NCBI GenBank assembly: GCA_947630445.1 | Contig: CANRHQ010000003.1 | Coordinates: 11,733-75,732, forward strand | Direction: 5' to 3' | Length of the DNA stretch: 64,000 nucleotides | Source of the DNA: an uncultured Clostridia bacterium | GTDB lineage: Bacteria > Bacillota > Clostridia > TANB77 > CAG-508 | Shown: one piece after another, positions 1 to 64,000 of the stretch | Layout: each line of letters starts with the position of its first letter | Numbering within the stretch: position 1 is the first letter of the stretch | Program-made: the position numbers and the translations under genes | The notes under the pieces: model-generated | What the model was told of the DNA's origin: nothing | The model's database searches: none | The model's input: the letters and a program-made list of their open reading frames with translations, nothing else

Positions 1-767
1 AATATAATAACTATTGCAAATCCTATATATCCCCATAATTGTATTGTGGATTCTATGAATCCAGCTCCTGTTAATTCTGTTCCATTGCTTAATGTTAAAA
101 ATTTTCCTGTAACAATATTTTGCACACTTAATATTGTTGATAATGCTATCCCTATCGCTAAAATAAAGACATTTCTCAATAATTTTTTTATTAATTTACT
201 ATCACGTAATAAAGTTCTGTCAACTGCTTCAAAATATAAATTAAATACTACAATATAGTATACTGCCATATATATACTTATTCCTATTACAAACTTAATA
301 AAGTATTCTATAATTGTTTCTATTAGAGGTTTTATAAACATATAATATGATATATCTAATCCAAAAATTATATCTGTATTTACAAATGATACATTACTTG
401 CAAATAATAAGACTTTTTCTAACAATGTATTAGATAATATTATACTTATTATTACTGATATTATTAATGTTAATGATTTATTAGGTAGTTTAGGCATTTC
501 TTTTTTTTCTTGTTCAAAAAATGGTTTTAATCCATTTTTTATTCCTATATTAGTTAAGTAAACTATAATACTTACTATTACAAAACTAACCCCCATTATA
601 GAATATTTATATTTTAAATTTGTAAAAAAGACTTCTATATATTGTTCCCCTAGTTCTGCATATTCTAAATATTGTCCTCTTAATGATATATATGTTGTTA
701 TTATATATACTAATACAAATGCTAAAACCAATAATGTTCTCGTTTTAGTATTAAATTTTACTTTCAT
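1..767 (-). CDS. Polytopic membrane protein, N-terminal part only (gene continues past the left edge); possibly UPF0182-like
   Basis: Absent from the ORF track because no stop codon lies in the window. ATG at 767..765. Hand translation gives MKVKFNTKTRTLLVLAFVLVYIITTYISLRGQYLEYAELGEQYIEVFFTNLKYKYS... followed by several hydrophobic helices. I checked that the frame is open codon by codon around 378..431. The family name is from memory of the N-terminal pattern only. Confidence 0.5.
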   Translation of the reverse strand, partial: MKVKFNTKTRTLLVLAFVLVYIITTYISLRGQYLEYAELGEQYIEVFFTNLKYKYSIMGVSFVIVSIIVYLTNIGIKNGLKPFFEQEKKEMPKLPNKSLTLIISVIISIILSNTLLEKVLLFASNVSFVNTDIIFGLDISYYMFIKPLIETIIEYFIKFVIGISIYMAVYYIVVFNLYFEAVDRTLLRDSKLIKKLLRNVFILAIGIALSTILSVQNIVTGKFLTLSNGTELTGAGFIESTIQLWGYIGFAIVII

Positions 768-785
768 ATATTAATATTCCTTTCT

Positions 786-1691
786 TTATATTATTGCTTT
801 TGCAAAGTCTTTAGAATTAAATATCTCCATATCATCTATTTGTTCTCCAACACCTATAAATTTTACTGGAATTTTATTTTCTTCTACTATCCCTATCACT
901 GCTCCACCTTTTGCTGTTCCATCTAATTTAGTAAGAATTATTCCTGTTATATCTGCTTGTTCTTTAAATGCTTTTACTTGAGATATTGCATTTTGACCTG
1001 TTCCTGCATCTATGACTAATAATACTTCTTTAGATGATTCTGGCATTTCTTTATTTATAACCTTTTGAATCTTGTTTAATTCATCCATCAAATATTTTTT
1101 GTTATGTAATCTTCCTGCAGTATCACATATCAATACATCTGCATTTAATTGTTTGGTTTTTGATATTGCGTCATATACTACTGATGCTGGATCTATGCCT
1201 TCTTCTCTTTTTACTATTTCAGCACCTGCTCTTTTTGCCCATATCTCTAGCTGTTCTACTGCTGCTGCTCTAAAAGTATCTGCTGCTGCAACTACGACCT
1301 TTTTGCCATCTCTTGCTAATCTTGCTGCCATTTTTCCTATTGAAGTTGTTTTTCCAACTCCATTAACACCTACTACTAAAATAACAGATGGTTTGGTCTC
1401 TAATTTTAAACTATTGTCTGAAATCTCTAATATTTTTTCAATTTCTTTTCTTAAGGCTTCTTTTACTTGTTCTTCATCTTCTATTTTTTCTTTTTTCATT
1501 CTATCTCTTAAATTATCAATTATTTTTGTTGATGTTTCTATTCCTATATCTGACATTATTAGTGCTTCTTCCAATTCTTCAAGAAAATCTTCATCTACTT
1601 TTCTAAAATTACTAAATACGTCATTTATTTTTTCGTTTATTGCTCCTTTTGTTTTAGTTAAACCTTGTTTTAATTTGTCAAAAAACCCCAT
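786..1691 (-). CDS. ftsY: Signal recognition particle receptor FtsY
   Basis: 301 aa with SRP-GTPase motifs GVNGVGKTT, DTAGR and TKLDGTAKGG. Confidence 0.92.
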   Translation of the reverse strand: MGFFDKLKQGLTKTKGAINEKINDVFSNFRKVDEDFLEELEEALIMSDIGIETSTKIIDNLRDRMKKEKIEDEEQVKEALRKEIEKILEISDNSLKLETKPSVILVVGVNGVGKTTSIGKMAARLARDGKKVVVAAADTFRAAAVEQLEIWAKRAGAEIVKREEGIDPASVVYDAISKTKQLNADVLICDTAGRLHNKKYLMDELNKIQKVINKEMPESSKEVLLVIDAGTGQNAISQVKAFKEQADITGIILTKLDGTAKGGAVIGIVEENKIPVKFIGVGEQIDDMEIFNSKDFAKAII

Positions 1692-1790
1692 TTTTCCTAA
1701 TTCTTCCTTTCAAATTTTTATGTTAATATTTTATCATTTTTTAAACAAAAATACAAGTAGCAAATGCTACTTGTATTTAACCTGTATTTA

Positions 1791-2129
1791 TTATACTTCT
1801 TTCCAAAACCAGTCCAAACTATTGTCAATACTTTTCTTATTGAATTTTTTAGCTTCCAAATCATCTACCCATAAGTATGAAATGAATGATATAAATATAA
1901 AAGCAAAATCTAATATTATACACCATGTTAATGTTGGGCTATTATAACTATATTCTCCTGATAATGTCATTAATTGTACTACATGCATTACTAATAATAA
2001 TAAAAATGTAAATAATGGTATTGCCACTATATAACTTCTTTTTAATTCATAACTTAAAAAAATTAATAATACTGTAAACATCAATAATAGTAATAATGTT
2101 ACTGCATTTGTTATGTCTAATATAAACAT
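1791..2129 (-). CDS. Small integral membrane protein, function unknown
   Basis: 112 aa with three hydrophobic helices. A good RBS (AAAGGAGGAAAA) lies upstream on the minus strand. Confidence 0.55.
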   Translation of the reverse strand: MFILDITNAVTLLLLLMFTVLLIFLSYELKRSYIVAIPLFTFLLLLVMHVVQLMTLSGEYSYNSPTLTWCIILDFAFIFISFISYLWVDDLEAKKFNKKSIDNSLDWFWKEV

Positions 2130-2213
2130 ATATTTTTCCTCCTTTGTTTTTTTATGTATTTCTCCTTATGTATATGTACATATATTATCATTATATTTTT
2201 TTAAAATCAATAC

Positions 2214-3578
2214 TTATTTACAATTTTTTTCAATCAATTTTGCAATTTCTTTTGCCTTTTTTTCTATTACCTTTTCATCTTTTCCTTCAATCATTACTCT
2301 TACAAGTGGTTCAGTTCCTGATGGTCTTATTAAAACTCTGCCATTTCCTGAAAATTCTTTTTCTAAATTATCTATTGCATTTTTAATTTCTGGATTTTTT
2401 TCATATTCGTACTTTTTTTCTGTCGATACTTTTGCATTAATTAATACTTGTGGATATTTTTGTACTATTTTTGATAATTCAGAGGCTTTTTTTCCAGTCT
2501 CAAATAATGCTTGTATTAACATTAATGATGTTAATATTCCATCTCCTGTTGGATTATAATCTAATAAAATTATATGTCCTGATTGTTCTCCTCCTAAATT
2601 ATATTCGTTTTTCAACATTTCTTCAAGAACATATCTATCTCCTACTTTTGTTTGTAATAATTTCATTTTATTTTTTTCTGCATATTTATTTAATCCTAGA
2701 TTGCTCATTACTGTTGCTACAATAGTTTTGTTATTTAACTTTCCTTTAGCTTGTAAATAGTTTGCAATTATTGCTAGTAACTTATCTCCATCAATTTCTT
2801 CTCCTTTTTCATCTATTGCTAAACATCTATCTCCATCTCCATCATAAGCAATTCCTAAATTCATCTTATTTTTTAAGACATATTCTTTTAACATCTCTAG
2901 GTGTGTTGAACCACAATTTTGATTTATGTTTATTCCATCTGGATTATTGTTTATTATTTCATGTTCTATTCCTAATGTTTTAAATACTTTATCAGCAATT
3001 TGATATGTTGCACCATTAGCTGTATCTATTACTACTTTAAAATTATTCTTTTTATATTTTTCTATATTATCTTCAAAATTTTTTCTAAAAAAGTATATAT
3101 ATTCATCTATTAAATCTGTTCTTACTTCTGAAACACCTATTTTATCTTTTACAGCAGATAATTCATCTAGTTTTCCTGAATCCATTACATCTTCTATTTC
3201 TTCTTCTATTTCATCTGATATTTTCATACCTTTATTACTAAAATATTTAATTCCATTAAATTCATATGTATTATGTGATGCTGAAATAACCACACTTGCA
3301 TCTGCTTGTAATTTTTTAGTTAAATATGCCACAGCTGGTGTTGGTATAACTCCTAATAATTTTACATTTGCACCATAGCTTAAAAATCCTGCTACCATAG
3401 CACTTTCTATTAATGTCCCTGATAAACGCGTATCTCTACCAATTAAAATCGTTGGTGCTTTATTAGTATGTTTTGACAATACATATGCTCCTGATTTTGC
3501 AACTTTGTATACTAATTCTGGAGATAATTCAGTGTTTGCTATTCTACGAATACCATCTGTTCCAAAATACTTTCTCAT
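2214..3578 (-). CDS. glmM: Phosphoglucosamine mutase
   Basis: 454 aa. N-terminus MRKYFGTDGIRR, active-site serine motif ISASHN, and DGDGDR metal loop. Confidence 0.92.
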   Translation of the reverse strand: MRKYFGTDGIRRIANTELSPELVYKVAKSGAYVLSKHTNKAPTILIGRDTRLSGTLIESAMVAGFLSYGANVKLLGVIPTPAVAYLTKKLQADASVVISASHNTYEFNGIKYFSNKGMKISDEIEEEIEDVMDSGKLDELSAVKDKIGVSEVRTDLIDEYIYFFRKNFEDNIEKYKKNNFKVVIDTANGATYQIADKVFKTLGIEHEIINNNPDGININQNCGSTHLEMLKEYVLKNKMNLGIAYDGDGDRCLAIDEKGEEIDGDKLLAIIANYLQAKGKLNNKTIVATVMSNLGLNKYAEKNKMKLLQTKVGDRYVLEEMLKNEYNLGGEQSGHIILLDYNPTGDGILTSLMLIQALFETGKKASELSKIVQKYPQVLINAKVSTEKKYEYEKNPEIKNAIDNLEKEFSGNGRVLIRPSGTEPLVRVMIEGKDEKVIEKKAKEIAKLIEKNCK

Positions 3579-3595
3579 AACATTCCTCTCTTTCT

Positions 3596-4300
3596 TTAAT
3601 TTACTAATTCATTTAATAAATTATAATACTCTGTCATTCTATTTATGTTAGCAAATTGTATTTTGTCATCTTTAATTGTCCAATAATCATCATTATCTTC
3701 TAAATATTTTTTTATTCTTTCTAATACAGATGTTTTACTATATATTTCATCTTTTTCATTTTCAATATCTGTTTGAATTAATCTGTATTCTTCTTTCATT
3801 ACATCACTTAACATAGTTGTTTTAAATAAATTTGTATAATAATCTTTTCTAAATGTTATTTTTTCATTTTCAATATACTTAATTATATTTTCATCTTTAA
3901 TTAAGTCTTGATATTCAGATATACACTCTTTACTTTTATTTCTATATTCTTCAATTATATTGTTTATCTCTGTAAAATCTTTATCTTCTATGTTTGATGC
4001 AGAAAATATATTATTAGGATTTATTTGTGTATTTATTTCATTGACTTCTAAATATATATTCTTAAGTTTCATCATATATTCTTTTATAGATTTTTCAACA
4101 ACTGCATAATTTTGTTTTGTTTGAATGTCTAAATTAATTTCTTCTTTTGTTATATCTTTTTCTAATAAATTATTTGTTTCTTCTGTTAATAAGTTTAATT
4201 GCTTTGTATTAAAATCGTTATATAAATACGAAATTGCTATTAAAAGTATTATTAAAATTACTACTATTATTATTCCAATTATTGTTCTTTTATTTTCCAT
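3596..4300 (-). CDS. Membrane-anchored hypothetical protein (single N-terminal TM, coiled-coil-rich)
   Basis: The ORF track starts at 4339, but the internal ATG at 4300 (MENKRTIIGIIIVV...) has an AAAGGAG RBS. One TM helix is followed by a K/E/N-rich ectodomain. Confidence 0.55.
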   Translation of the reverse strand: MENKRTIIGIIIVVILIILLIAISYLYNDFNTKQLNLLTEETNNLLEKDITKEEINLDIQTKQNYAVVEKSIKEYMMKLKNIYLEVNEINTQINPNNIFSASNIEDKDFTEINNIIEEYRNKSKECISEYQDLIKDENIIKYIENEKITFRKDYYTNLFKTTMLSDVMKEEYRLIQTDIENEKDEIYSKTSVLERIKKYLEDNDDYWTIKDDKIQFANINRMTEYYNLLNELVN

Positions 4301-4349
4301 TTTATTTCTCCTTTTTCGAAAATGACAATATATTTTCAAAACTTCATCT

Positions 4350-5732
4350 TTAGAAATCTATTTTATTTTGTATCCATTTTTCTAGTTCATCTATTTTTAC
4401 TCTTTCTTGTTCCATTGTGTCTCTATCTCTTATAGTTACAGAATTATTTTCTAGTGTTTCAAAATCTACTGTTATGCAATATGGTGTTCCTATTTCATCT
4501 TCTCTTCTATATCTTTTTCCTATTGAACCTGTTTCATCATATTCACACATGAATTTTTTACTTAATTGAGAATACACTTCTTCTGCTTTTTCTGATAATT
4601 TTTTTGATAATGGTAATACTGCTACTTTATATGGTGCTAATGCTGGATGTAAGTGTAGGACAACTCTTGTTTCTCCATTTTCAATTTCTTCTTCATCATA
4701 ACTATTACATAAAAATGCTAATGCAACTCTATCTGCTCCTAATGATGGTTCTATACAATATGGTACATATTTTTCATTTGTTTCTGGATCTAAATAAGTA
4801 AAATCTTCATTTGATACTTTCATATGGTTAGTTAAATCATAATCTGTTCTATCAGCAATTCCCCATAATTCTCCCCAACCAAATGGGAATGCATATTCTA
4901 TATCAGTTGTTGCTTTACTATAAAATACCAATTCTTCTGGACTATGATCTCTTAATCTTATATTTTCTTCTTTCATTCCTAAATCTAATAACCATTTTTT
5001 ACAAAAACTTTTCCAATATTCATGCCACTCTAAATCAGTTCCTGGCTTACAGAAAAATTCTAATTCCATTTGTTCAAATTCTCTTGTTCTAAATGTAAAG
5101 TTTCCTGGTGTTATTTCATTTCTAAATGCCTTTCCTATTTGTGCAATTCCCATTGGCAATTTTTTTCTTGTTGTTCTCATTACATTTTTAAAATTTACAA
5201 ATATTCCTTGTGCTGTTTCTGGTCTTAAATAAATTTCAGCTTTTGCATCTTCTGTAACACCTTGAAATGTCTTAAACATTAAATTAAATTTTCTGATTCC
5301 TGTAAAGTTATGTTTGCCACAATTTGGACAACATATATTGTGTTCATCCATATAATCTATCATTTCTTTATCTGTCATTCCATCTGCAATCATATCTTTT
5401 CCATTTTCATGAGCCCATTCTTCAATTAATTTATCTGCTCTATGTCTAGTTTTACATTCTTTACAATCTATTAATGGATCTGAAAATCCACCAACATGAC
5501 CTGATGCTACCCATGTTTGTGGGTTCATTAATATTGCTGCATCTAATCCAACATTATATTTACTTTCTTGTATAAATTTCTTACTCCATAATTTTTTTAC
5601 ATTATTTTTAAGTTCTACTCCAAGTGGTCCATAATCCCATGTATTAGCTAATCCTCCATATATTTCTGAACCAGGATATATATATCCTCTTGCTTTACAC
5701 AAATTTACTATTGTGTCCATTGATTCTACCAT
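4350..5732 (-). CDS. glyQS: Glycine--tRNA ligase (single-chain GlyQS type)
   Basis: 460 aa. Contains ...[25 protein letters not shown]... and class II aaRS motifs. AAGGAGG RBS. A T-box leader lies upstream. Confidence 0.93.
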
Positions 5733-5739
5733 TTAAAAT

Positions 5740-5960
5740 TCCTCCTTACAAACAAAAAACTTTCATTCCTAGCATAATAGCTAGGGACGAAAGTTATATT
5801 CCGCGTTTCCACCCTATTTCTTAAAACCTTGTTTTAAGCACCTTAATTTTATATTACTCCAAAGCTCCCCTTATGATTTATATTACTAACTCACACCATC
5901 TGTTAGCTCTCTGAAAATATCCTCATAATTTTTCTTCTTCTCAGTAATTATTTAATTCTG
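5740..5960 (-). promoter_or_regulatory. T-box riboswitch leader of glyQS
   Basis: The minus strand reads AGAGAG (stem I), then the T-box sequence AAATAGGGTGGAAACGCGG (reverse complement of 5803..5821 region). A terminator follows: CTTTCGTCCCTAGC-loop-GCTAGGAATGAAAG plus a T6 run just before the RBS. The specifier codon was not resolved by eye. Confidence 0.8.
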
Positions 5961-5966
5961 TTTTTT

Positions 5967-5995
5967 ATTATATTATTGATATAGGTAAAAGTCAA
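5967..5995 (-). promoter_or_regulatory. Sigma-A-type promoter for the glyQS leader
   Basis: On the minus strand: TTGACT (5995..5990), 17-nt spacer, TATAAT (5972..5967). Confidence 0.55.
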
Positions 5996-6080
5996 TCTTT
6001 TTAATAAAATTTATGTTTATTTTTTAATTTCTATTGTAAATTTTTTTATTATATGTTAATATAATATAGTAATTTTATTT

Positions 6081-9810: not shown

Positions 9811-10483
9811 TTATAATTTTAAAATGTCTAATTCCATCTCGAACTGTTCTTAAATGCGATTTTCCATTTCTTTTATCTTTGTAAAAATTTATTGGAACTT
9901 CTGCCATTTTAATATTTTGTTTTCTTGCTTTTATAATCATTTCTGTTGCTAACTCCATACCTTTTGAATTACATCCGATTTCTAACATTTTTTCTGTATC
10001 AAAACCTCTTAATCCACAGTTAAAGTCTCCTATACTTATATCATATTTTTTTCTAGCTATCCAACTTATTAGAGGTGTTCCTATATATCTATGCAAAAAC
10101 TTCATTGCCCCTTTTTCCATATTTCCTTTGAATCTATTGCCAATTACCAATTGATATCCTTCAAGTAGTTTCTCATATATAGGCAATACTTCTAATAAAT
10201 TATAACTATCATCAGCATCTATCATTATAGTATATTTTCCTTTAGCCAATCTAATTCCTTCTCTTATTGCTACACCATATCCTCTTTCTTCCACAGTTTC
10301 TGTTCTAGCACCTAAACTTTTAGATATTTCCTCTGTATTATCAGTGCTTCCATTATTTATTACTAATATTTCTCCATTTATATTATTTTCTTCTAAAAAT
10401 TTTTTTCCTTTTTCTATACATATTGCTATTGTTTTTTCTTCATTAAGTGCTGGTATTAATATTGTTAAATCTAATTGGTTCAT
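9797..10483 (-). CDS. Family 2 glycosyltransferase (polyprenol-phosphate sugar transferase-like, soluble form)
   Basis: 228 aa. LTILIPALNEE...NNGSTD...DADDS motifs. Overlaps the upstream gene by 4 nt (ATGA-type coupling). Confidence 0.85.
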   Translation of the reverse strand: MNQLDLTILIPALNEEKTIAICIEKGKKFLEENNINGEILVINNGSTDNTEEISKSLGARTETVEERGYGVAIREGIRLAKGKYTIMIDADDSYNLLEVLPIYEKLLEGYQLVIGNRFKGNMEKGAMKFLHRYIGTPLISWIARKKYDISIGDFNCGLRGFDTEKMLEIGCNSKGMELATEMIIKARKQNIKMAEVPINFYKDKRNGKSHLRTVRDGIRHFKIIIKKM

Positions 10484-11820
10484 TTATATTCTCCTTTTTT
10501 ATTATCTTTTTTAAAATTAATTTCCTTTAATAGTAATTTATAATTTAAGCAATCTATAATTATATAAAAAAGTGCTATTATTGTTATAATTTGTTCTCTA
10601 AATGTAAAAAAAGAATGATAATATGAATGACTCACAAGTATTAAATATCTCATATATGGCATAACTGATATAAAAAGCAATATTAAAGAAAACCATTTTT
10701 TTCTTATGTTTTTCCAGTCAATACTTATTATTAAAACAAATATACTTATTAATACAATTTTTAATATATCTGATTTTCTCTTTATAATATTTATTGGATA
10801 TAAATTATGAAAATTCTCATACAATGATCCTATATATAATTCTTTTGTACTTATATATCCTTTTTTTCCATTAATTCTAAATAACAAGTTATCTTTTACA
10901 TAATCTAGTGCATTTATATTTAATATAATTGATGCTAAAAGCCATTTTGTTAGCCACATTGCAACATACGCTATTCCCCATATTACACAACTTTTTATTA
11001 GAAATATAATTTCTTCTTTTATTGTCTTTATTCTTCCTTCTTCTTTTCTAACTAATAATACTAACAACATTGGTACTAAAAATGTTATTAATTCCGTTGT
11101 TAAAAAATCAAAGAAACATGTTAATATTCCTGTAATAAAAAATAGTTTGTATAATAATTGATTTCCCTTTTTTTCTATTTGTATTGCAATTATACTTACA
11201 ATTAACATTATATAAAATGTCCATGAATATTCTAAACAATATGGTACAATTGGAAATGCAATTAATATCATAGAAATAATATATATTATTGCTATTTTTT
11301 TACTTTTTCTTAATAATATAAAGAAAAGTAATATAGCAAGCATCCATAATAAAATTTTATTTAAAAGGTATATTTCTTCTATATTAAAAATTGTTAAAAG
11401 TGGTCTTAAAATTACAATACTTCCATGCCAATATCTTATATATTGTTGATTTGGCTCTTTTTCTTCTTTTATTGATTTTATAAAATCATAGTTTACATCT
11501 GCATAGGATTTTTGATAATATTTATCTACCATTACTGATTCAAGTGGTTTACTTGAATCAATATTATTTATTATATTTAGAATTATTGTGTCTGCATAAT
11601 AATGTACAAATGTATATTCTCTTCTTTTTAAAATCTCTTCCATTCCAGATCTTTTTTCAAAAAATGGTACAGACTCTTTTAAGTTTTCTTGTATAGCACT
11701 TTTGGGAATTAATGATGTAATAATTAATAAAAATAATACTACTAAAACTGTAAATACAAAGTACATTATATATTTTATTATTTCTACTAATGTATTTTTT
11801 ATTTTAATAGCATTGAACAT
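10480..11820 (-). CDS. Polytopic membrane protein (about 10 or more TM helices); possible GT-C-type glycosyltransferase, by context only
   Basis: 446 aa and highly hydrophobic. AAAGGAG RBS. Translationally coupled to the GT2 gene. The function is inferred, not recognised. Confidence 0.7.
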   Translation of the reverse strand: MFNAIKIKNTLVEIIKYIMYFVFTVLVVLFLLIITSLIPKSAIQENLKESVPFFEKRSGMEEILKRREYTFVHYYADTIILNIINNIDSSKPLESVMVDKYYQKSYADVNYDFIKSIKEEKEPNQQYIRYWHGSIVILRPLLTIFNIEEIYLLNKILLWMLAILLFFILLRKSKKIAIIYIISMILIAFPIVPYCLEYSWTFYIMLIVSIIAIQIEKKGNQLLYKLFFITGILTCFFDFLTTELITFLVPMLLVLLVRKEEGRIKTIKEEIIFLIKSCVIWGIAYVAMWLTKWLLASIILNINALDYVKDNLLFRINGKKGYISTKELYIGSLYENFHNLYPINIIKRKSDILKIVLISIFVLIISIDWKNIRKKWFSLILLFISVMPYMRYLILVSHSYYHSFFTFREQIITIIALFYIIIDCLNYKLLLKEINFKKDNKKGEYK

Positions 11821-11873
11821 ATCAAAAATTTCTCCTTTTCTTTATTTTTATTTTAATATTATTTTACAAATTT

Positions 11874-11902
11874 ATTCTAACAATAAAGTATACTATTTGC
11901 AA
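11874..11902 (-). promoter_or_regulatory. Fixed-orientation promoter of the membrane-protein/GT2 operon, paralogous to the promoters inside the three invertible cassettes
   Basis: The minus strand reads ATAAAGTA-TTGCAA-ATAGTATACTTTATTGT-TAGAAT (17-nt spacer with an extended TG). The cassettes carry ATAAAGTA-TTGCAA-TTAGTATATTTTATTGT-TAAAAT. Confidence 0.65.
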
Positions 11903-11922
11903 TACTTTATAAGGAAAATCTT

Positions 11923-12006
11923 TTATGATGTAATAATTAATGAAAATAGTACTATTAAAATTGTAATACAAAATACTTTGCATTTCATTTTAATAGTACT
12001 AAACAT
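11923..12006 (-). repeat. Remnant copy 1 of the 5' end of the 446-aa membrane-protein gene (with RBS remnant)
   Basis: The minus strand reads ATG TTT AGT ACT ATT AAA ATG AAA ... = MFSTIKMKCKVFCITILIVLFSLIITS*. This is homologous to MFNAIKIKNTLVEIIKYIMYFVFTVLVVLFLLIITS of the real gene at 11820. The plus-strand ORF 11702..12010 in the track is its antisense shadow. Confidence 0.75.
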
Positions 12007-12038
12007 ATAAAAAATTCTTCTTTTATTTGTTTTTGCAA

Positions 12039-13190
12039 TTATTCTTCTAATGTTATATTTGAGTCTTCAGAACGAGTTTCATATATTTCTCTTAATTTAG
12101 GACAAGTTCCTTTTAATACTAAATTAGCATCTGGATTAGTAGAAGCATTTTGCAAGCAATCATAATAGTATATACAATCAGATGAATTAATAATTAATTC
12201 TCCAGTAAGACAATAACATTCACAGAAACACATACGCAAATCATCAACAAGCATTGGAATCGTCGGAGCAGTAGTTAATGAAACACAACCGTTAAAAGTA
12301 GAGGTCATCGAAGTAACCGTAGATGGAATCTCAGGTGCAATAACTAAATCTTCACAATTCAAAAATGTGCTACTCATGTTAATAACTTCATACCATTCAT
12401 CCTCTCCATCTACCTTTATATACTGAGGAACTTTTCCTTGTATCTTCCCTTCAACAATATTTGAATTATCATATCCTGGAGACGCACTACAACCAGACAC
12501 CTCATTTAAAGCAAATCCCTTAACAGTACCATCAAACATCAGAATCTTTCGATACCTCCAAAGATCTAAATTAACTGAATTTCCATCTGTTCCTATTCCA
12601 ATATCTCCATTTTCTGGACTTTGACTTGGATGTTTTTTTGCATTTTCTTTAGCTGCCTCCCAGTCTATTTCTGTTGTTGAATCTGATATACTAGTTATAT
12701 ATCCTATTTCTTCCATATTCTCTTTTTTATCATAATATACTAATATATATTCTTCTGTAATTCTTTCACTTGAAAGTTTTACATTTTCTATACTTGCTAC
12801 TTTTGATAATTTATCACTTTCTTCTAACTTATATACATCCTTTGTTCCAGTTCCGTTTCCATATGCTATTGTTTTTCCTAGTAAATTATATATATTTACT
12901 GTATAATCATCATTTACAAATCCTTTTCTTTGTAAATATTCCATTAAATGTTCATTTAAACCTATTGCCTCTTTTTCTACCATATAATTTTGTACTTCTA
13001 TTTGTAATCCTTCATATACTTCTGCATGTGCATTTTTTGTTTTTGCTTCTTTTGAATTTGTTATTATTCCACTATCTCCTGCTAACATTGCAATTGATGT
13101 TCCTGCTAATATTAGCAATACTACAATAGTAACTACTAATGCTATTAGCGTTATACCATTTTGTTTTTCTCTTGTTTCTTTCTCTTTCAT
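12039..13190 (-). CDS. Pilin-like-N-terminus surface/secreted protein with BspA-type leucine-rich repeats (paralog A)
   Basis: 383 aa. N-terminus MKEKETREKQNG-ITLIALVVTIVVLLILAG has a short charged leader ending in G followed by a hydrophobic helix, which is prepilin-like but lacks Glu at +5. C-terminal repeats follow the pattern STF.nC..L..AP.IP..V..M.STFNGC.SLTTAP.IP. AAAGGAGGAACC RBS. Confidence 0.85.
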   Translation of the reverse strand: MKEKETREKQNGITLIALVVTIVVLLILAGTSIAMLAGDSGIITNSKEAKTKNAHAEVYEGLQIEVQNYMVEKEAIGLNEHLMEYLQRKGFVNDDYTVNIYNLLGKTIAYGNGTGTKDVYKLEESDKLSKVASIENVKLSSERITEEYILVYYDKKENMEEIGYITSISDSTTEIDWEAAKENAKKHPSQSPENGDIGIGTDGNSVNLDLWRYRKILMFDGTVKGFALNEVSGCSASPGYDNSNIVEGKIQGKVPQYIKVDGEDEWYEVINMSSTFLNCEDLVIAPEIPSTVTSMTSTFNGCVSLTTAPTIPMLVDDLRMCFCECYCLTGELIINSSDCIYYYDCLQNASTNPDANLVLKGTCPKLREIYETRSEDSNITLEE

Positions 13191-13214
13191 TGGTTCCTCC
13201 TTTATTTGTTTTTT

Positions 13215-13411
13215 CTTAATCTCTATAATTAAAGAAAAATAAAAAAGATGTAAATAACTAAAAATATGTATATTTACATCTTTTCTTGATTTTTAATTTT
13301 CATAATTTTATAAAAATATTTCTAAAAAAATTTTTTTCATAAAGTATTGCAATTAGTATATTTTATTGTTAAAATTATTTTATGAATAAATCTTTAATTA
13401 TAGAGATTAAG
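13215..13411. promoter_or_regulatory. Candidate invertible promoter cassette (inverton) A
   Basis: Perfect 21-bp inverted repeat: CTTAATCTCTATAATTAAAGA at 13215..13235 and its reverse complement at 13391..13411. The 155-bp interior holds a hairpin (13243..13256 / 13271..13284, AAAAGATGTAAATA / TATTTACATCTTTT). It also holds a plus-strand promoter: TTGCAA 13347..13352, 17-nt spacer ending TGT, TAAAAT 13370..13375. The promoter points away from gene A. Confidence 0.7.
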
Positions 13412-13515
13412 GATTTTTTTGTTCTGTAAAATAATAATGTATTTATTTTTATATTCATTTTTTATAATGATATATTTCCTTTTAAATTTTCTTCTATCAT
13501 ACTTTTGCGAATCAA

Positions 13516-13596
13516 TTATGTAATAATTAATAAAAATAGTACTATTAAAATTATAATACAAAATACTTTGCATTTCATTTTAATAGTACTAAAAAT
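13516..13596 (-). repeat. Remnant copy 2 of the 5' end of the membrane-protein gene (start codon mutated to ATT)
   Basis: Near-identical to remnant copy 1: ...AGTACTATTAAAATGAAATGCAAAGTATTTTGTATTATAATTTTAATAGTACTATTTTTATTAATTATTACATAA on the minus strand. Track ORF 13505..13750 is its antisense shadow. Confidence 0.7.
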
Positions 13597-13620
13597 ATTA
13601 AAATTTTTCCTTTTTTTCTA

Positions 13621-14766
13621 TTATTCCTCTAATGTTATATGTGATTCCTCAGAACGAGTTTCATATATATCTTCTAAATTAGGACAAGTTCCTTTCAATA
13701 CTAAATTAGCATCTGGATTAGTAGAAGCATTTCGCAAGCAGCCATCATAACCATACCAACCATCAAGCAACTCAGCCGAATTAATAATTAATTCTCCAGT
13801 AAGATTACTGCATCCATAAAAGCAATAACTCAAATCTCTAACTTGTGTTGGAATCATTGGTGCAGTAGTTAAACTTTTACAGTCATTAAAAGTCGAAGAC
13901 ATGTAAGTAACTGTATCAGGAATATCAGGTGCAATAACTAAATTAGAACAACTATAAAAAGTCGCAAGCATATAAGTAACAACACGCCATTGGTCTTCCC
14001 CAGCTACTTTTATATATTGAGGAACTTTTCCTTGTATTTTCCCATCAACAATATCAGAATTCTGATATGCTGGTTCTGAAAAGCTACCCATACTCGCACA
14101 CAACACAATTGAATTGTCTCCTTCCTTTTGATACTTCCAAAGATCCATATTAACTGGATTTCCATCTGTTCCTATTCCAATATCTCCATTTTCTGAACTT
14201 TGGCTTGGATGTTTTTTTGCATTTTCTATAGCCTTTTCCCAGTCTATTTCTGTTGAATCTGATATACTAGTTATATATCCTATTTCTTCCATATTCTCTT
14301 TTTTATCATAATATACTAATATATATTCTTCTGTAATTCTTTCACTTGAAAGTTTTACATTTTCTATACTTGCTACTTTTGATAATTTATCACTTTCTTC
14401 TAACTTATATACATCCTTTGTTCCACTTCCATTTCCGTATTCTATTGTTTTTCCTAATAAATTATATATATTTACTGTATAATCATCATTTATGAATCCT
14501 TTTCTTTGTAAATATTCCATTAAATGCTCATTTAAACCTCTTGTCTCTTTTTCTACCATATAATTCTGTGTTTCTATCTGTAATACCTCATACACTTCTG
14601 CGTGTGCATTTTTTGTTTTTGCCTCTTTTGAATTTGTTATTATTCCATTATCTCCTGATAACATTGCAATTGATGTTCCCGCTAATATTAATAATACTAC
14701 AATCGTTACTACTAATGCTATTAGCGTTATACCTTTTTGTTTTTCTCTTGTTTTTTCCTCTTTCAT
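13621..14766 (-). CDS. Pilin-like-N-terminus surface/secreted protein with BspA-type leucine-rich repeats (paralog B)
   Basis: 381 aa. The first ~205 aa and the last ~30 aa are nearly identical to paralog A. The central LRR-bearing part has diverged. Same RBS and leader. Confidence 0.85.
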   Translation of the reverse strand: MKEEKTREKQKGITLIALVVTIVVLLILAGTSIAMLSGDNGIITNSKEAKTKNAHAEVYEVLQIETQNYMVEKETRGLNEHLMEYLQRKGFINDDYTVNIYNLLGKTIEYGNGSGTKDVYKLEESDKLSKVASIENVKLSSERITEEYILVYYDKKENMEEIGYITSISDSTEIDWEKAIENAKKHPSQSSENGDIGIGTDGNPVNMDLWKYQKEGDNSIVLCASMGSFSEPAYQNSDIVDGKIQGKVPQYIKVAGEDQWRVVTYMLATFYSCSNLVIAPDIPDTVTYMSSTFNDCKSLTTAPMIPTQVRDLSYCFYGCSNLTGELIINSAELLDGWYGYDGCLRNASTNPDANLVLKGTCPNLEDIYETRSEESHITLEE

Positions 14767-18147: not shown

Positions 18148-20469
18148 CTATTCTTCTTTCTTTTTCTTTAAATTTACAACAATTGCATTTTCATTATCAA
18201 ATATAAAATTTGAATCTGTTGTATCTGTTTGGACAGGATTAACTTCCTGTTTTTCATCTGTAAAGTTTACATTTTTTGGATTAAATTTTATTTTTGTTGA
18301 ATCATCTGGTTCATTATTTGTAACACCTGGTGTAAATTTTGTAAAGTTATATATTTTTACAGGTTGTTCTTCTTTATATTTTGCACCTATAAAATCTAGT
18401 TTTGCTTCACCTATATCATATGAACCATAATCATTTTTCAACTTTAATGCTCCTATTTTGAATCCTAAAGTTGCAAGTTTATTTACAGGGAAATATAACT
18501 CCCAATCATATTTTACACCGCCCCATTTTGGATCATAAGAATTAGTTTTGGTATCCAAACTCTGTGAATATATCCATGTCCTTCTCTTATAGAATTCACT
18601 TGACCACCATTCTAGTTCTTCTGTTACTGCATTTCCTAGGAATAATTTATTTGCACAATTTGATAATATTGTATCTTTATATTTTAATTTTGGTGAGTTT
18701 CCTTCTAATTGTGCTAAGTTTTGTGCTGTTATTGTTGTTCCAACTTTATATTTACGATATAGTGTAAATATTGCTTCTGTATCTTTACATATAAAATCTG
18801 GAAATTCATCTATATATAAGAAATGTGGTATTCTACTACTTTCATTTCCTGGTCTTCTTAATACACCCATTTGCATTGAAAGTATAAAGAATAATCCGAA
18901 TGCTTTATGACTAGTTCTTCCTAAATCTCCTCTACGAGTACATACTAATGTTACTTCACCATTTGCTAATGCTTTGTCAAAATCTATATTATTAGTTCTT
19001 TTACAAAGAATTGCCTTAACTCCTGGTAATCTTAATAAATTATCTAGTTGTGATACAGCTAAATATATATATTTCTCTGTATCTGCTTTTCCTGGACCAT
19101 CAGCATAAAAATTCTTTTTGAAATACTCTATTTGCATACTATATTTTTCTGCTAATTCCTCATCATTTCTCATTATTTCGCACATTTTTTCTACTAAGTC
19201 AAAGTTTGTAAGCATTTTTAACATATCTTCTAGATTTGGTAAATTTCCACCATTTATTCTAGGATACATTTCTTTTAACATAATTGTTAAATTTTCTATT
19301 GCTTGAATTATATATTCTTCTCTGTATGAATCCTCTATTTCTGGATGATTATTTACATACATTCCTTTTAATGCTGATGATATTGTTATTGCTATTTTTG
19401 AAGCATCATCATAAACAAATGGATTTAATCCAATTGAATCACTACTTCCTGGATCTATCAAATTATATTTTATATGAAAGTTTTTACAAACATTCATTAT
19501 TTTAGAAGTTGATTCAAAGTCAGGTGCTATTGATGTTATACCTACATTTCTATAAATAAATTCATTTCCAAATGATGATAATATCATTTTATTCATATAA
19601 GCCTTATAAACAGTTTCTTTACCATAAGCTGGTGTAAGCATATTTAAATCAAAATTCTCATTTAGATAATCATTATCATATGGTTTATTTAATGTGGCTA
19701 TACCTGTTTTTAATGCTGTATATCCCATTTCCTTTGCATTTGCTATATAAAATGCTTTCTTTTCAATATCTTTTGCCATCATTGGTTCTAGTACTAAAGT
19801 AGTTTTTCCTGTTCCTGAACCTCCACATACAAATAATGATTGATATCTCTTTTGTTCGAAAAATGTCATTTTTCTACCAGTTTCAAACTCTGTACAAAAT
19901 AACATATCACATGTAAATGGTCCATGTCCTGCTTTAGAATCTGCTAAACTTATTCCTCTATAATCCCATAAAGATCTTTTTGCATCTTTACTATCATTAA
20001 TTTTAAATACAATCCACTTTATTACTGAATAAAATGTCGTTAATGGTAAGTATAGTGCTAATGCTGTAAATGCTGGTCTAATTAATTCTGAAAAGTCTGT
20101 AACTAACTCTGTATATCCAGGCATTGATATTAAAAAGAGCCATGCTGCTTGATTAATCCATTGTACAAACATTGATAATGCTATTACATATAAAGTAACT
20201 ATGTATGTTAAAAATAATGTTATTTTTATATTTTTTGATGAAGCAAATTCTGATGTTGGTGAAAATAAAAATGCAAAAACCGGACATGCAAGTGCTAATG
20301 TGTATCTAATTGGTCCCCAATATGAAACAGATACACCTGTAAACACTAAAAATAACATTTCTACTACTCTATCAACTAATATGTATAATGAAATCAATGT
20401 TAATACATAAGTTGCAAATGTATTTCTGCTAGCATTTAGTTTCTTTAAAAATTTATCTATTATTTTCAT
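18148..20469 (-). CDS. Membrane-anchored VirD4/TraD/TraG-like type IV coupling-protein ATPase (orphan)
   Basis: 773 aa. About 5 N-terminal TM helices, Walker A VCGGSGTGKTTLV, Walker B-like HFLYIDEFPDF, then GTTITAQNLAQLEG. This is the T4CP arrangement hhhhDE...Q..xQL. Confidence 0.7.
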   Translation of the reverse strand: MKIIDKFLKKLNASRNTFATYVLTLISLYILVDRVVEMLFLVFTGVSVSYWGPIRYTLALACPVFAFLFSPTSEFASSKNIKITLFLTYIVTLYVIALSMFVQWINQAAWLFLISMPGYTELVTDFSELIRPAFTALALYLPLTTFYSVIKWIVFKINDSKDAKRSLWDYRGISLADSKAGHGPFTCDMLFCTEFETGRKMTFFEQKRYQSLFVCGGSGTGKTTLVLEPMMAKDIEKKAFYIANAKEMGYTALKTGIATLNKPYDNDYLNENFDLNMLTPAYGKETVYKAYMNKMILSSFGNEFIYRNVGITSIAPDFESTSKIMNVCKNFHIKYNLIDPGSSDSIGLNPFVYDDASKIAITISSALKGMYVNNHPEIEDSYREEYIIQAIENLTIMLKEMYPRINGGNLPNLEDMLKMLTNFDLVEKMCEIMRNDEELAEKYSMQIEYFKKNFYADGPGKADTEKYIYLAVSQLDNLLRLPGVKAILCKRTNNIDFDKALANGEVTLVCTRRGDLGRTSHKAFGLFFILSMQMGVLRRPGNESSRIPHFLYIDEFPDFICKDTEAIFTLYRKYKVGTTITAQNLAQLEGNSPKLKYKDTILSNCANKLFLGNAVTEELEWWSSEFYKRRTWIYSQSLDTKTNSYDPKWGGVKYDWELYFPVNKLATLGFKIGALKLKNDYGSYDIGEAKLDFIGAKYKEEQPVKIYNFTKFTPGVTNNEPDDSTKIKFNPKNVNFTDEKQEVNPVQTDTTDSNFIFDNENAIVVNLKKKKEE

Positions 20470-62307: not shown

Positions 62308-62559
62308 ATGGTTAATTTTGAGTACATGGCTTATGTTTTGTGTTTCAGTGAAACAAGAATGACATTTAAAGTTGATATTCTTATTGGCAATGATAATGTG
62401 GGTTCAGCAAGTATTATATTAGGAAAAAATACTAATGTTGACTTGTTATTTTGTGAACATTATCTTAAAAGCTATACTGAATACACTCATTATGTCAAAA
62501 CAGAAGATTTATTTTTTGTGTGCTTAAAACAAGCAAAAATAATTTGGAATTTATGTTAA
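62308..62559 (+). CDS. Hypothetical small protein
   Basis: 83 aa. The promoter-like TTGATT-17-TATAAT lies upstream, and a GAGGT RBS is present. Confidence 0.5.
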   Translation: MVNFEYMAYVLCFSETRMTFKVDILIGNDNVGSASIILGKNTNVDLLFCEHYLKSYTEYTHYVKTEDLFFVCLKQAKIIWNLC

Positions 62560-62593
62560 AGGAGTATTCTTTTGAATACTCCTTTTATATTTC

Positions 62594-62899
62594 CTATTTT
62601 CCACAATTACAATCATTTGAATTCATGTCTAAATAGTTTCCATCATTCATATAGAATTTCTTTTCTGATAATTTGTCTTGTACTCCTCTTAATGCTTCTC
62701 CAAACCTTTGGAAATGAACTATCTCTCTTTGTCTTAAAAATCTCAATGGGTCTATTACTTCTGGATTATCTCTGCATAAGTTTATTAGTTTTTCATAAGT
62801 TGCTCTTGCTTTTTGTTCTGCTGCTAAATCTTCTTGAAGATTTGCAATAGCATCACCTTTACATGCAATATATGCTGCTGTGCTATTAAGGATACCATT
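62594..62899 (-). pseudogene. cotJC: 3' fragment (about 100 codons) of a CotJC-like manganese catalase gene, truncated at an element junction
   Basis: Hand translation of the minus strand gives NGILNSTAAYIACKGDAIANLQEDLAAEQKARATYEKLINLCRDNPEVIDPLRFLRQREIVHFQRFGEALRGVQDKLSEKKFYMNDGNYLDMNSNDCNCGK*. It aligns with the B. subtilis CotJC C-terminal half (...ASYIQAKGDPIADLYEDIAAEEKARATYQWLI...LRFLREREIVH..RF.EA). The frame hits TAA immediately upstream, inside the recombinase gene's end, so no N-terminal half is present here. Confidence 0.75.
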
Positions 62900-64000
62900 A
62901 GTTATTACTTATTTTTGAGAAAACTAATTTTAAATTTATGTTACGATTACTGTCAAATTCGATTTTATCTATCAAATTACTCAATATCTGTTTAGTTACC
63001 TTGTTTGTGTTTAAAAATTCCTCAGATAGCTTTTTAATTTGATTATAACTTATTGTATTTTTATTTTTCTCAAGCTTTATTTTCTGTTCTAAATCACAAA
63101 TTTGCTTTTTACATTTTTCAATGTCATTTTCTTTTTGAGCTTTAATTGATAAAAAAGTTTCATTATTGATAATATTTTCAAGTTTATCATTATAGGTAAT
63201 TTTTATCTGTTCATTTATTTTATCTATTTTAGCAAGTAACCCTTGTTTTTGATCTTCTAATCTATGGCATTCATAATTAATGCTTTTTTCTAAGTTATTC
63301 ATAACAGTTTTTATATCATTATCATTAAAAGAAATATTTTTACATTCTTTTTCTATTATTGGAATTATTATATTATACAGTTTTCTACTACTTATAGATT
63401 TTGTATTATTACACTTTTTATTTGTACCTTTGTTAGCTTCAGAACAAATATAAGAGTTTATCTCGCATTTACCACCATTTTTAGTAGTTTTTTCTTTATG
63501 TTTTAATGTAGAAATACTACCACATTCTTTACAATAAATTAAACCTTTAAAAATATCATCATATTTTCTGTTTCTATTATTCTTAAATCTCTCTTTTAGT
63601 ATTTGACATTTATTAAATGTTTGTATATCAATTATTGGCTCATGCATATTTTCAACAATTATTTGATTTTCTTTAGTATTTCTAATTCTTTCTTTCCTTC
63701 TAAAACTTGGTTTTACTGTTTTTGCTCCTACCACTGTTCCAATATACACAGGATTACTAACAATTCTTGTTATTGTAATTTCCTTCCAACCTTCTGAATT
63801 TGCTTTTATTCCTTTTATTTTTAAATACTCTCTAGGTGGTATGATTTTTCTCTCATTTAAACTTTTTACTATTTCTGTGCGAGTATATCCTTTTGAATAC
63901 TTTTCAAATATTTCTTGTATAATAGTTGATACTTCACTATCAACTATTAACCTATTTTTATTATTTGAACCTTTTTTGTATCCATATGGAGCAGTGTTTC
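62898..64000 (-). mobile_element. Large serine recombinase gene (3' two-thirds; runs off the right edge) marking the end of an integrated element
   Basis: The track ORF 62898..63749 starts at an internal GTG. The frame stays open upstream to 64000 (...APYGYKKGSNNKNRLIVDSEVSTIIQEIFEKYSKGYTRTEIVKSLNERKIIPPREYL...ITRIVSNPVYIGT...). This shows the recombinase domain, a zinc-ribbon (CKECGS...C..C) and a coiled coil, the layout typical of SpoIVCA/phage-type large serine recombinases. Confidence 0.8.

Follow-up and report, generated by a model that had tools for sequence, protein, structure and literature searches.

Interruption of the spore-coat gene cotJC in uncultured gut Clostridia by a putative small serine recombinase element with possible developmental excision

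Why does a spore-coat gene of an uncultured gut Clostridia bacterium end against a site-specific recombinase gene, and can it still give rise to a protein? This question is raised by the right end of a 64,000-nucleotide stretch of contig CANRHQ010000003.1 (positions 11,733 to 75,732; referred to here as the window), where the minus strand carries only the 3′ part of cotJC, a spore-coat gene for a manganese catalase-like protein, next to the 3′ part of a gene for a large serine recombinase (LSR). Mobile DNA that splits a sporulation gene and leaves it in the mother cell alone is a well-known case of an element built into development; the small number studied in detail come chiefly from Bacillus and C. 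difficile. Based on the analysis described here, we favour, with some reserve, a small non-phage LSR element in codon 118 of cotJC that would be excised during development in the manner of skin-like elements.

The cotJC 3′ fragment lies at 62594..62872 on the minus strand. It runs from the Tyr118 codon to the stop and comprises about 92 codons of genuine host cotJC, covering CotJC residues ~118-209. Translation of the minus strand from ~62902 to 62597 is free of stops (TNGILNSTAAYIACKGDAIANLQEDLAAEQKARATYEKLINLCRDNPEVIDPLRFLRQREIVHFQRFGEALRGVQDKLSEKKFYMNDGNYLDMNSNDCNCGK*), the stop codon being 62594-62596, and the Tyr118 codon (TAT, 62872-62870) contains the crossover. The fragment has no internal stop and no frameshift, and it ends at a normal stop codon. 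A preliminary description of this DNA had proposed that the window encodes only the C-terminal part of a catalase-like CotJC. Both profile and alignment bear this out: the Pfam model PF05067 (Mn_catalase) matched with E=2.3e-17 over profile positions 129-197 of 284, its C-terminal part only, and tblastn with a full-length CotJC reference, rebuilt from the cotJA-cotJB-cotJC operon of a related locus (L008), gave 82% identity over residues 108-207 (E=3e-52). In a protein search, the fragment was 85-94% identical to other homologous fragments. The only model that NCBIfam offers is a generic Mn-catalase one, which scored below the cut-off, and tblastn with the reconstructed CotJC found no second cotJC-like segment anywhere in the 64 kb.

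Directly 3′ of the cotJC stop is a hairpin with a 12-bp stem (AAAGGAGTATTC-TTTT-GAATACTCCTTT, 62558..62585), the one structure found in the terminator scan against 0.3 expected. It scores as a terminator for a convergent plus-strand open reading frame (ORF) of 83 aa and shows where the cotJC locus ends, intact, on its 3′ side. The DNA to the left of the junction is that of an ordinary spore-former chromosome at 27% GC, with ftsY, glmM, glyS, obg, dnaK, dnaJ, hemW, spoIIP, relA and recJ; the visible part of the element (62898-64000) has a GC content of 23.0% versus 26.9% for the chromosome at 1-62593. Four metagenome contigs of the same strain (99.8-99.9% nucleotide identity) have the identical junction, which is therefore not an assembly artefact of one sample.

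The adjoining LSR gene occupies 62898..64000 on the minus strand. These are its 3′ 1,103 nt, 366 codons plus the stop TAA (62898-62900), open to the window edge in a reading frame that differs from that of the cotJC fragment. The preliminary description had placed the end of an LSR gene at 62898..62900 and let it extend beyond the right edge, and this assignment stands: the 366 residues matched PF07508 (Recombinase, E=2e-20) and PF13408 (Zn_ribbon_recom, E=4e-8) and represent the recombinase domain, the zinc ribbon and the coiled-coil/C-terminal region. A further ~175 codons, those of the N-terminal catalytic domain, fall outside the window; the corresponding PF00239 is found in all full-length relatives, which are 540-541 aa long and combine PF00239, PF07508 and PF13408. 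Over the shared 366 residues, the window LSR is 73-92% identical to its relatives at the ten loci compared, and no database protein was more than 87% identical to it. Within the last recombinase codons there is also an outward-facing sigma-70-like sequence (TTGACA-18-TAAAAT, 11/12 positions; window 62927-62956, minus strand, and L008 11568-11597) that points into the cotJC 3′ fragment. It overlaps conserved coding sequence and may be coincidental.

Where exactly do the two genes meet? An alignment of the recombinase-proximal junctions in 13 relatives defined the anatomy of a 48-bp hybrid attachment (att) site of the attR type at 62850..62897 on the minus strand, TGGTATCCTTAATAGCACAGCAGCA-TA-TATTGCATGTAAAGGTGATGC. 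It consists of an element-derived P-type half-site (62873-62897), the crossover TA (62871-62872) and a B′-type half-site supplied by cotJC (62850-62870). The LSR stop directly abuts the P-type half-site. The catalase homology had first been described as ending within a few bases of the recombinase stop. The apparent homology does reach that stop, but the true crossover is 26 nt away, at the TA; the residues ‘ILNSTAA’ that lead up to the stop are the element’s attP-type arm mimicking the cotJC sequence. In three relatives for which both junctions are known (L018, L015 and L008), attL and attR have only TAT in common. The L018 sites read GGTGTACCTTTTACAGCAGCC-TAT-GATGCTGTAATGGTAAGGAAACC (attL) and CTCCTTACCATTACAGCATCA-TAT-ATTGCATGTAAAGGTGACCC (attR), and the attP reconstructed from them is a perfect 40-bp palindrome centred on TA, CCTTACCATTACAGCATC-ATAT-GATGCTGTAATGGTAAGG. 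A CCTT motif stands 16-19 bp from the centre in P halves and 12-15 bp from it in B′ halves, in the window site as well. In attB, the motif bound by the zinc-ribbon domain is shifted toward the centre relative to attP (PMC3783163), and the CCTT spacing is this inward shift, which fits the structural model of LSR attP and attB. That model has a pseudo-palindromic attP of about 50 bp, an attB of about 40 bp, a 2-bp crossover in the centre and a distal motif that lies about 5 bp further inward in attB. The window element has a single att site with a TA centre, and its half-sites are intact and agree with the family consensus.

Related elements show what the complete arrangement looks like. We found 16 independent loci with a related recombinase, and all 16 are flanked by cotJC pieces cut at the same codon. 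Where a slash marks the break, the relatives read ...PFTA(A/S)Y / IA.KGD... or an allelic equivalent, and the window reads ...GVPFTAAY / IACKGD.... The relatives come from uncultured gut Clostridia, with metagenome-assembled genomes from rabbit, mouse and human gut. Both junctions are visible in ten of them, with element sizes from 3.4 to 7.7 kb: 3,430 bp in L120, 3,942 bp in L123, about 4.2 kb in L013 and L014, about 5.0 kb in L015, about 5.3 kb in L124, 5,749 bp in L008, about 6.9 kb in L018 and 7,741 bp in L098. L120 and L122 display the window arrangement in complete form, cotJA-cotJB-cotJC(1-117) / DUF2207_C gene - 37-aa ORF - recombinase / cotJC(118-end). In-silico excision at the central dinucleotide yielded single ORFs of 207, 197, 200 and 201 aa (L008, L098, L120 and L123, respectively). 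The rejoined pieces lie downstream of cotJA-cotJB in all three completely reconstructed loci whose gene calls were inspected, and the 5′ piece is present in every relative whose contig includes the far side. Through the attR anatomy in the window and these relatives, in which the 5′ half sits 3.4-7.7 kb away, the proposal that a skin-like element with a terminal LSR splits cotJC is upheld.

For the strain itself, the far side is beyond the available sequence. A search through a neighbouring protein retrieved seven same-strain contigs, four of which reach the recombinase, the other three being ~1 kb. Each of these four stops within the recombinase gene, and public contigs offer no extension for this strain. 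An exact 42-mer taken from the right edge was absent from both the viral and the genome collections, and the degenerate attP palindrome expected of an excised circular form was not found in viral_contigs. We consider it likely that the missing 5′ half is located past the right edge and that the gene can be restored.

Based on the ten relatives with both junctions, we can predict what would be found to the right of 62872. The last gene of the element would be the LSR gene of ~541 aa, co-directional with cotJC, with its 5′ end near 64523 (from the ~541-aa length), preceded by a sigma-A-like promoter and a conserved leader. An ORF of 37-44 aa, the candidate recombination directionality factor (RDF), would follow 85-200 nt past the recombinase start. 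Beyond it would come variable cargo (1-5 kb), the other att arm and, finally, codons 1-117 of cotJC with cotJB and cotJA. The attL is expected to read ...CC(A/T)TTTACAGC(A/T)(G/T)C(A/C)-TA-T, followed by a P′-type arm (such as GATGCTGT...TAAGGAGAATG) and the CTTAGAGTAGACAACCATTCACC motif. The recombinase would cut the central TA of both hybrid sites, the element would leave as a circle, and cotJC would be rejoined precisely. We propose that the recombinase is constitutive and that the small factor would trigger excision in the mother cell only, as in C. difficile skin and SPbeta. CotJC would then be made for the coat, and the forespore chromosome would retain the element.

The candidate switch in this scheme comes from a comparison of element contents. 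When all ORFs of 12 elements were clustered, two proteins proved universal, the recombinase and the 37-44 aa ORF. The small ORF lies 85-200 nt upstream of the recombinase in 12/12 loci (for example, L008 9803-9916, L018 9185-9304 and L120 9795-9908). It has the consensus MEKVNYNIKIEYGNQDLKNIILQIFEEYCANKILEK with the motif ..NYNIKIEYGNQDLKNIILQIFEEYCANKILEK, a good ribosome-binding site and a pooled pN/pS of 0.27, and it matched no Pfam or NCBIfam model. By analogy with known systems, we regard it as a candidate RDF. The order of the module is a strong terminator hairpin closing the cargo, a strongly conserved ~40-nt box, the small ORF, the promoter, the leader AATGGTTGTCTAAACTTTAAGAGAAGGAGG and the recombinase with a TTG start; in five loci a sigma-A-like sequence, TTTACA-17-TATAAT, stands upstream of the recombinase. 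In skinCd, the C. difficile skin element, the recombinase gene CD1231 has a sigma-A promoter and the RDF CD1234 is controlled by sigma-E (PMC5025042, PMC5595907). The module thus seems to match the skinCd/SPbeta design, in which a constitutive recombinase is present and excision is gated by a small mother-cell factor. By eye, none of the conserved upstream blocks resembled the SpoIIID consensus of C. difficile, KRTAACARK.

Two further repeated sequences accompany the module. A 20-nt motif, GAATGGTTGTCTA(A)ACT(T/C)TAAG, occurs in the recombinase leader with an inverted copy beside the far-end att arm (in L008, at about 9960-9985 and, inverted, at about 6000-6025; likewise in L015, L018, L098, L120 and L123). 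Ahead of the small ORF there is also a box, ATGCATAAA(A)CCTAT; a similar one stands before the first far-end cargo gene, which is an HTH_36 gene in L008, L015 and L018. These motifs and boxes may be operators or promoters. The cargo itself is variable and includes HTH_36 regulators, MNT/HepT toxin-antitoxin pairs, RhuM, a GNAT-APH fusion, a methyltransferase, NUDIX and DUF2207_C proteins. An HTH_36 protein had been considered as a universal component and was ruled out, because the minimal elements L120-L123 are without it. An Rfam scan of the complete L018 element found no known RNA family.

Is there reason to think that the split gene serves a function? The strongest argument comes from the rest of cotJC, which is interrupted in gut Clostridia at no fewer than five positions. 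In addition to residue 118, used by the family of the window and its relatives (family B), there are sites near residue 34 (L047, L057), near residue 61 (L016, L018 and several database proteins; recombinase not seen), near residue 100 with a ‘K(Y/H)TPHG’ junction (L093-L095, L014-L016, L124) and near residue 136 (L013, L014, L017). The recombinases of sites 34, 100, 118 and 136 are 30-40% identical between sites and 66-88% identical within a site. Since four LSR families each hit their own position in cotJC, the selected target appears to be the gene and not just a sequence, and on sequence evidence this convergence would speak for function more strongly than anything else in the data. Some genes carry two or three elements (L013, L014, L016), and the pieces keep open frames even in genes with three. 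Rebuilding CotJC in the mother cell would in such cases require several independent excisions. L121 is likewise among the loci with interrupted cotJC regions.

One site-100 element is 2.9 kb long and encodes a ParE toxin and a 521-aa LSR. A C-fragment protein of this site (P0023) is listed, as an exact match, on 622 contigs and indexed in 994 blocks of the protein collection; the three contigs inspected derive from metagenomes, at least one of them of human gut. In L124, the neighbouring site-100 (type-A) element at 46-5980 encodes RepL, Mob_Pre, Fic and a 521-aa LSR of the DUF4368 type, and it looks like a mobilisable element resembling Tn4451.

Substitution rates were compared among loci in which cotJC is split at codon 118 (the window, L008, L015, L018 and L019), split elsewhere (L093) or uninterrupted there (L096). 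Over a 72-codon core of the C-terminal piece, every pair gave a ratio of nonsynonymous to synonymous substitution rates (dN/dS) of 0.03-0.10, and synonymous sites were close to saturation; for the recombinases, dN/dS among relatives was 0.09-0.23. These values indicate strong purifying selection on both cotJC pieces and recombinases. Do these values mean that the gene is maintained while it is split? Between the window and L019, dS is 0.31 for the recombinase and 1.09 for cotJC, and between the window and L018 it is 1.30 and 0.72, respectively. Because of this incongruence, which emerged from a co-divergence test for such selection, and because the L120 and L123 elements are 98% identical although their hosts differ, the elements must move horizontally, and low dN/dS of cotJC alone is thus no proof of selection in the split state. 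The cotJC region at L096 (1590-2229) is uninterrupted at all insertion sites and has a frameshift near codon 29, which reflects either a mistake in sequencing or a true pseudogene.

Intact alleles are also common. A full-length query retrieved many proteins of 200-212 aa, some of them with 97-98.6% identity to the rejoined allele of the species that yields P0023, where, by the counts for that protein, split genes are plentiful. An apparent absence of full-length alleles, with none above 181 aa among the best 120 matches, was discarded as a ranking artefact of a short query.

Developmental excision has to be weighed against several observations that speak against it. For this strain, the window contains neither the cotJA-cotJB-cotJC operon as such nor the missing 5′ part of cotJC, nor does it include the second att site or the small ORF. 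The catalytic domain of the LSR family is closest to that of TnpX (best match in the PDB, 2mhc, E=6e-22), a transposon recombinase that needs no directionality factor. The scan for sigma-70-type promoters gave matches that were not enriched over shuffles in this AT-rich DNA. The box upstream of the small ORF, TAATATT-N15-CATAAACC, which may be sigma-E-like, is a lead only. The low dN/dS of cotJC could reflect selection that acted before recent insertions, and the split state is not fixed, since intact alleles are common in related populations.

A rival explanation is that the element is a selfish integrative one of the Tn4451 or SCC type, for which cotJC is a harmless landing site. The gene would then be inactivated, and excision would be sporadic or would accompany transfer. 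The horizontal mobility seen in the near-identical element of two hosts and in the incongruent divergences agrees with this explanation, as does the coexistence of intact and split alleles within species. TnpX, the nearest relative of the catalytic domain, and CcrB, the closest NCBIfam model, both act without a developmental signal, and RepL and Mob_Pre are encoded by the type-A neighbour in L124. In B. subtilis, spores are not known to suffer catastrophically from the loss of cotJC. The CotJC-like catalases of C. difficile have been described as redundant (PMC11222575). However, four unrelated LSR families on at least five positions of one small gene are hard to explain by a neutral site preference, the pieces all keep open frames with a C-terminal dN/dS of 0.03-0.10, and a small ORF beside a constitutive-looking recombinase resembles the RDF-gated design of skinCd and SPbeta. 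On balance, we consider the selfish element rather unlikely, if well worth keeping in view.

A dead remnant, in which cotJC has lost its 5′ half by deletion or decay and a 3′ stub persists beside a resident recombinase, seems quite improbable. The 5′ half is not visible here, the 3′ piece has been cut again or shortened in some relatives (L011 ends at residue 177, and L013, L014 and L017 are cut near 136), and the otherwise uninterrupted allele of L096 has a frameshift. Against this stand the 92-codon fragment free of stops and frameshifts with its normal stop, the intact att half-sites that match the family consensus, a recombinase open for all 366 visible codons, and the 5′ piece in every relative with the far side on its contig. 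A prophage comparable to SPbeta in spsM or to phiS63 in sigK, which the preliminary description had allowed for and which the frequent use of LSRs as phage integrases and the unseen size of this element might favour, is very improbable, because the ten two-ended relatives of 3.4-7.7 kb carry toxin-antitoxin, regulatory and membrane cargo without capsid, tail, terminase, lysis or conjugation genes (by Pfam or precomputed gene calls), and because the recombinase has no close phage relative, its best match among 50,697 phage records being 32% identical and IMG/VR holding none above 30%.

Returning to the small LSR element with developmental excision, we consider it slightly more probable than the contrary that excision is specific to the mother cell. 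The timing at sporulation is inferred from precedent and from the conserved module of small ORF and recombinase, and purifying selection on the cotJC pieces and the convergence of four LSR families on the gene lend it indirect support.

How do such elements find and keep their place in cotJC? In the window, the recombinase end faces the 3′ fragment. This is no rule, since relatives are inserted in both orientations: within family B, the recombinase is in the sense of cotJC in nine loci, as in the window, and antisense in seven. Even loci whose recombinases share 92-94% identity (L016-L018), or whose elements share 98% (L120/L123), have them in opposite orientations. In serine integrases, either alignment permits synapsis and cleavage, and the central dinucleotide alone sets polarity (PMC3783163, citing Ghosh 2003 and Smith 2004); insertion in both orientations is thus explained by the symmetric TA crossover. 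Variants of the central dinucleotide with otherwise the same arms were also found, namely TG/CA (L120, L100) and GT (L098), and each variant agrees with a different cotJC allele (DANCL, NATCL, TASVL). In each of the pairs L120/L123 and L099/L100, the att arms are identical, one centre is TA and the other TG/CA, the cotJC alleles have the matching centre (TAAYI for TA, DANCL/NATCL for TG/CA), and the orientations are opposite.

Seven elements carry a second intact palindromic att-like site of ~50 bp in tandem with the used junction (approximate positions: L008 11627-11680, L013 4143-4195, L014 6779-6835, L015 6155-6210, L019 2221-2275, L098 about 3415-3465, and after the recombinase stop in L099/L100). 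The centre of the tandem site differs from that of the junction, being of the GT type beside a TA junction or of the TA type beside a GT junction. Its position fits the circular order recombinase - site 1 - site 2 - cargo, that is, two alternative attP sites. On the host side, an alignment of 120 full-length homologues (P0247-P0366) showed that CotJC codons 115, 117, 118, 119 and 121 are the densest cluster of variable positions. Residues 115-121 of the attachment site vary as T/D/S, A/N, Y/C, I/L and C/A/T, whereas the rest of the protein is 86-95% conserved. This variability may reflect escape from insertion. Taken together, the switching of centres, the tandem sites and the variable codons suggest, in a descriptive sense, co-evolution of attP and attB. 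More tentatively, one might picture these 3.4-7.7 kb non-phage LSR elements, with a palindromic or near-palindromic attP and symmetric TA, retargeting by their central dinucleotide, often with tandem attP sites, in an arms race with attB sites that escape, and cotJC as a landing pad with multiple sites.

Several known systems share parts of this design. SPbeta in spsM (SprA/SprB) and skinBs (SpoIVCA) are alike in that an LSR rebuilds a spore-envelope gene in the mother cell. In contrast to the cotJC elements, they are phages or phage-derived and have a fixed orientation, and their LSRs are distant in sequence from the cotJC family, although SprA (PDB 9dxh, E=1e-15) is among the few solved structures that the family matches. 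SPbeta and skinBs measure 48-134 kb. The heterocyst elements of cyanobacteria (XisF, fdxN) are likewise LSR elements removed from a gene in a terminally differentiated cell, but they belong to another phylum, developmental programme and set of target genes; the NCBIfam XisF model matched our recombinases weakly (E=5e-20, below the cut-off). Several heterocyst-specific elements in one gene are also known. Tn4451 and Tn4453 (TnpX) are small clostridial elements (~6 kb) bounded by an LSR gene. Their targets are loosely defined GA sites, versus a single cotJC codon here; the annotated family-B elements are without a Mob or relaxase domain and without a Mob/oriT gene, and the conserved small ORF of cotJC elements suggests RDF control.

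A further parallel is skinCd of C. difficile (CD1231, with the RDF CD1234). It too is clostridial, interrupts a mother-cell sporulation gene, has an LSR with a sigma-A-type promoter and encodes a small protein as the likely switch, with precise excision at pseudo-palindromic att sites (PMC5025042). It differs in its target (sigK versus cotJC) and size (14.6 kb versus 3.4-7.7 kb), and the cotJC elements have no phage-like genes, are inserted in both orientations and encode a candidate factor of 37-44 aa. The gin element in gerE of Bacillus cereus ATCC10987 (GirC/GirX) is similar in being a non-prophage element with a serine recombinase and a small accessory factor, and in its attP-like inverted repeat around a central dinucleotide (PMC5595907). 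In contrast, it is 28.6 kb long with three recombinase genes, girC and girX are both induced in sporulation, and it occurs in a Bacillus, where it interrupts the gene of a regulator and not of a coat enzyme.

The known elements that intervene in sporulation genes are skinBs, skinCd, SPbeta/spsM, vfbin/spoVFB, gin/gerE and yin/yabG (PMC5025042, PMC4191935, PMC5499854, PMC5595907, PMC10747680). The cotJC gene has been mentioned before in this connection. It was listed as a target by Abe et al. 2013, as cited in a preprint (bioRxiv 10.1101/2021.11.22.469490). A skin-like element has been noted in cotJC of Laceyella sacchari (bioRxiv 10.1101/2022.02.25.481979), and in C. difficile R20291 a CotJC-like gene adjoins the prophage phi027 (PMC11222575). 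The interruptions listed by Abe et al. and in Laceyella affect the same target gene but are entries in lists, for Bacilli and Thermoactinomycetes; the papers covered give neither their att sites nor the recombinase family, and report no excision data or population survey. In the literature covered, which did not include Abe et al. 2013 itself, we found no cotJC element described with its att sites, its recombinase family or its excision, nor any such description for gut Clostridia. What is new here is the cotJC locus in uncultured gut Clostridia; its family shows variant features that deserve closer study, namely insertion in either orientation, switching of the core, tandem sites and occupancy of multiple sites.

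The locus adds a coat-enzyme gene to the known targets and offers a compact system, with a recombinase of ~541 aa, a candidate factor of 37-44 aa and att sites of 40-50 bp. Developmental excision of small non-phage elements, a minimal directionality factor, the use of a symmetric TA in nature and the co-evolution of attP and attB could all be tested through it. The att sites and their natural central-dinucleotide variants may be of interest for serine integrase engineering. If excision proves not to be developmental, cotJC would be a tolerated safe harbour that annotation pipelines mis-call as a pseudogene in many gut spore formers.

Elsewhere in the window, a 773-aa ORF on the minus strand (18148-20469) gave a weak match to the VirD4-like CD1115 family of conjugal transfer proteins (E=1.7e-12, below the cut-off). 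The large ORFs near it (10480-14766) had no NCBIfam match. The region may represent a second mobile element or a remnant of one.

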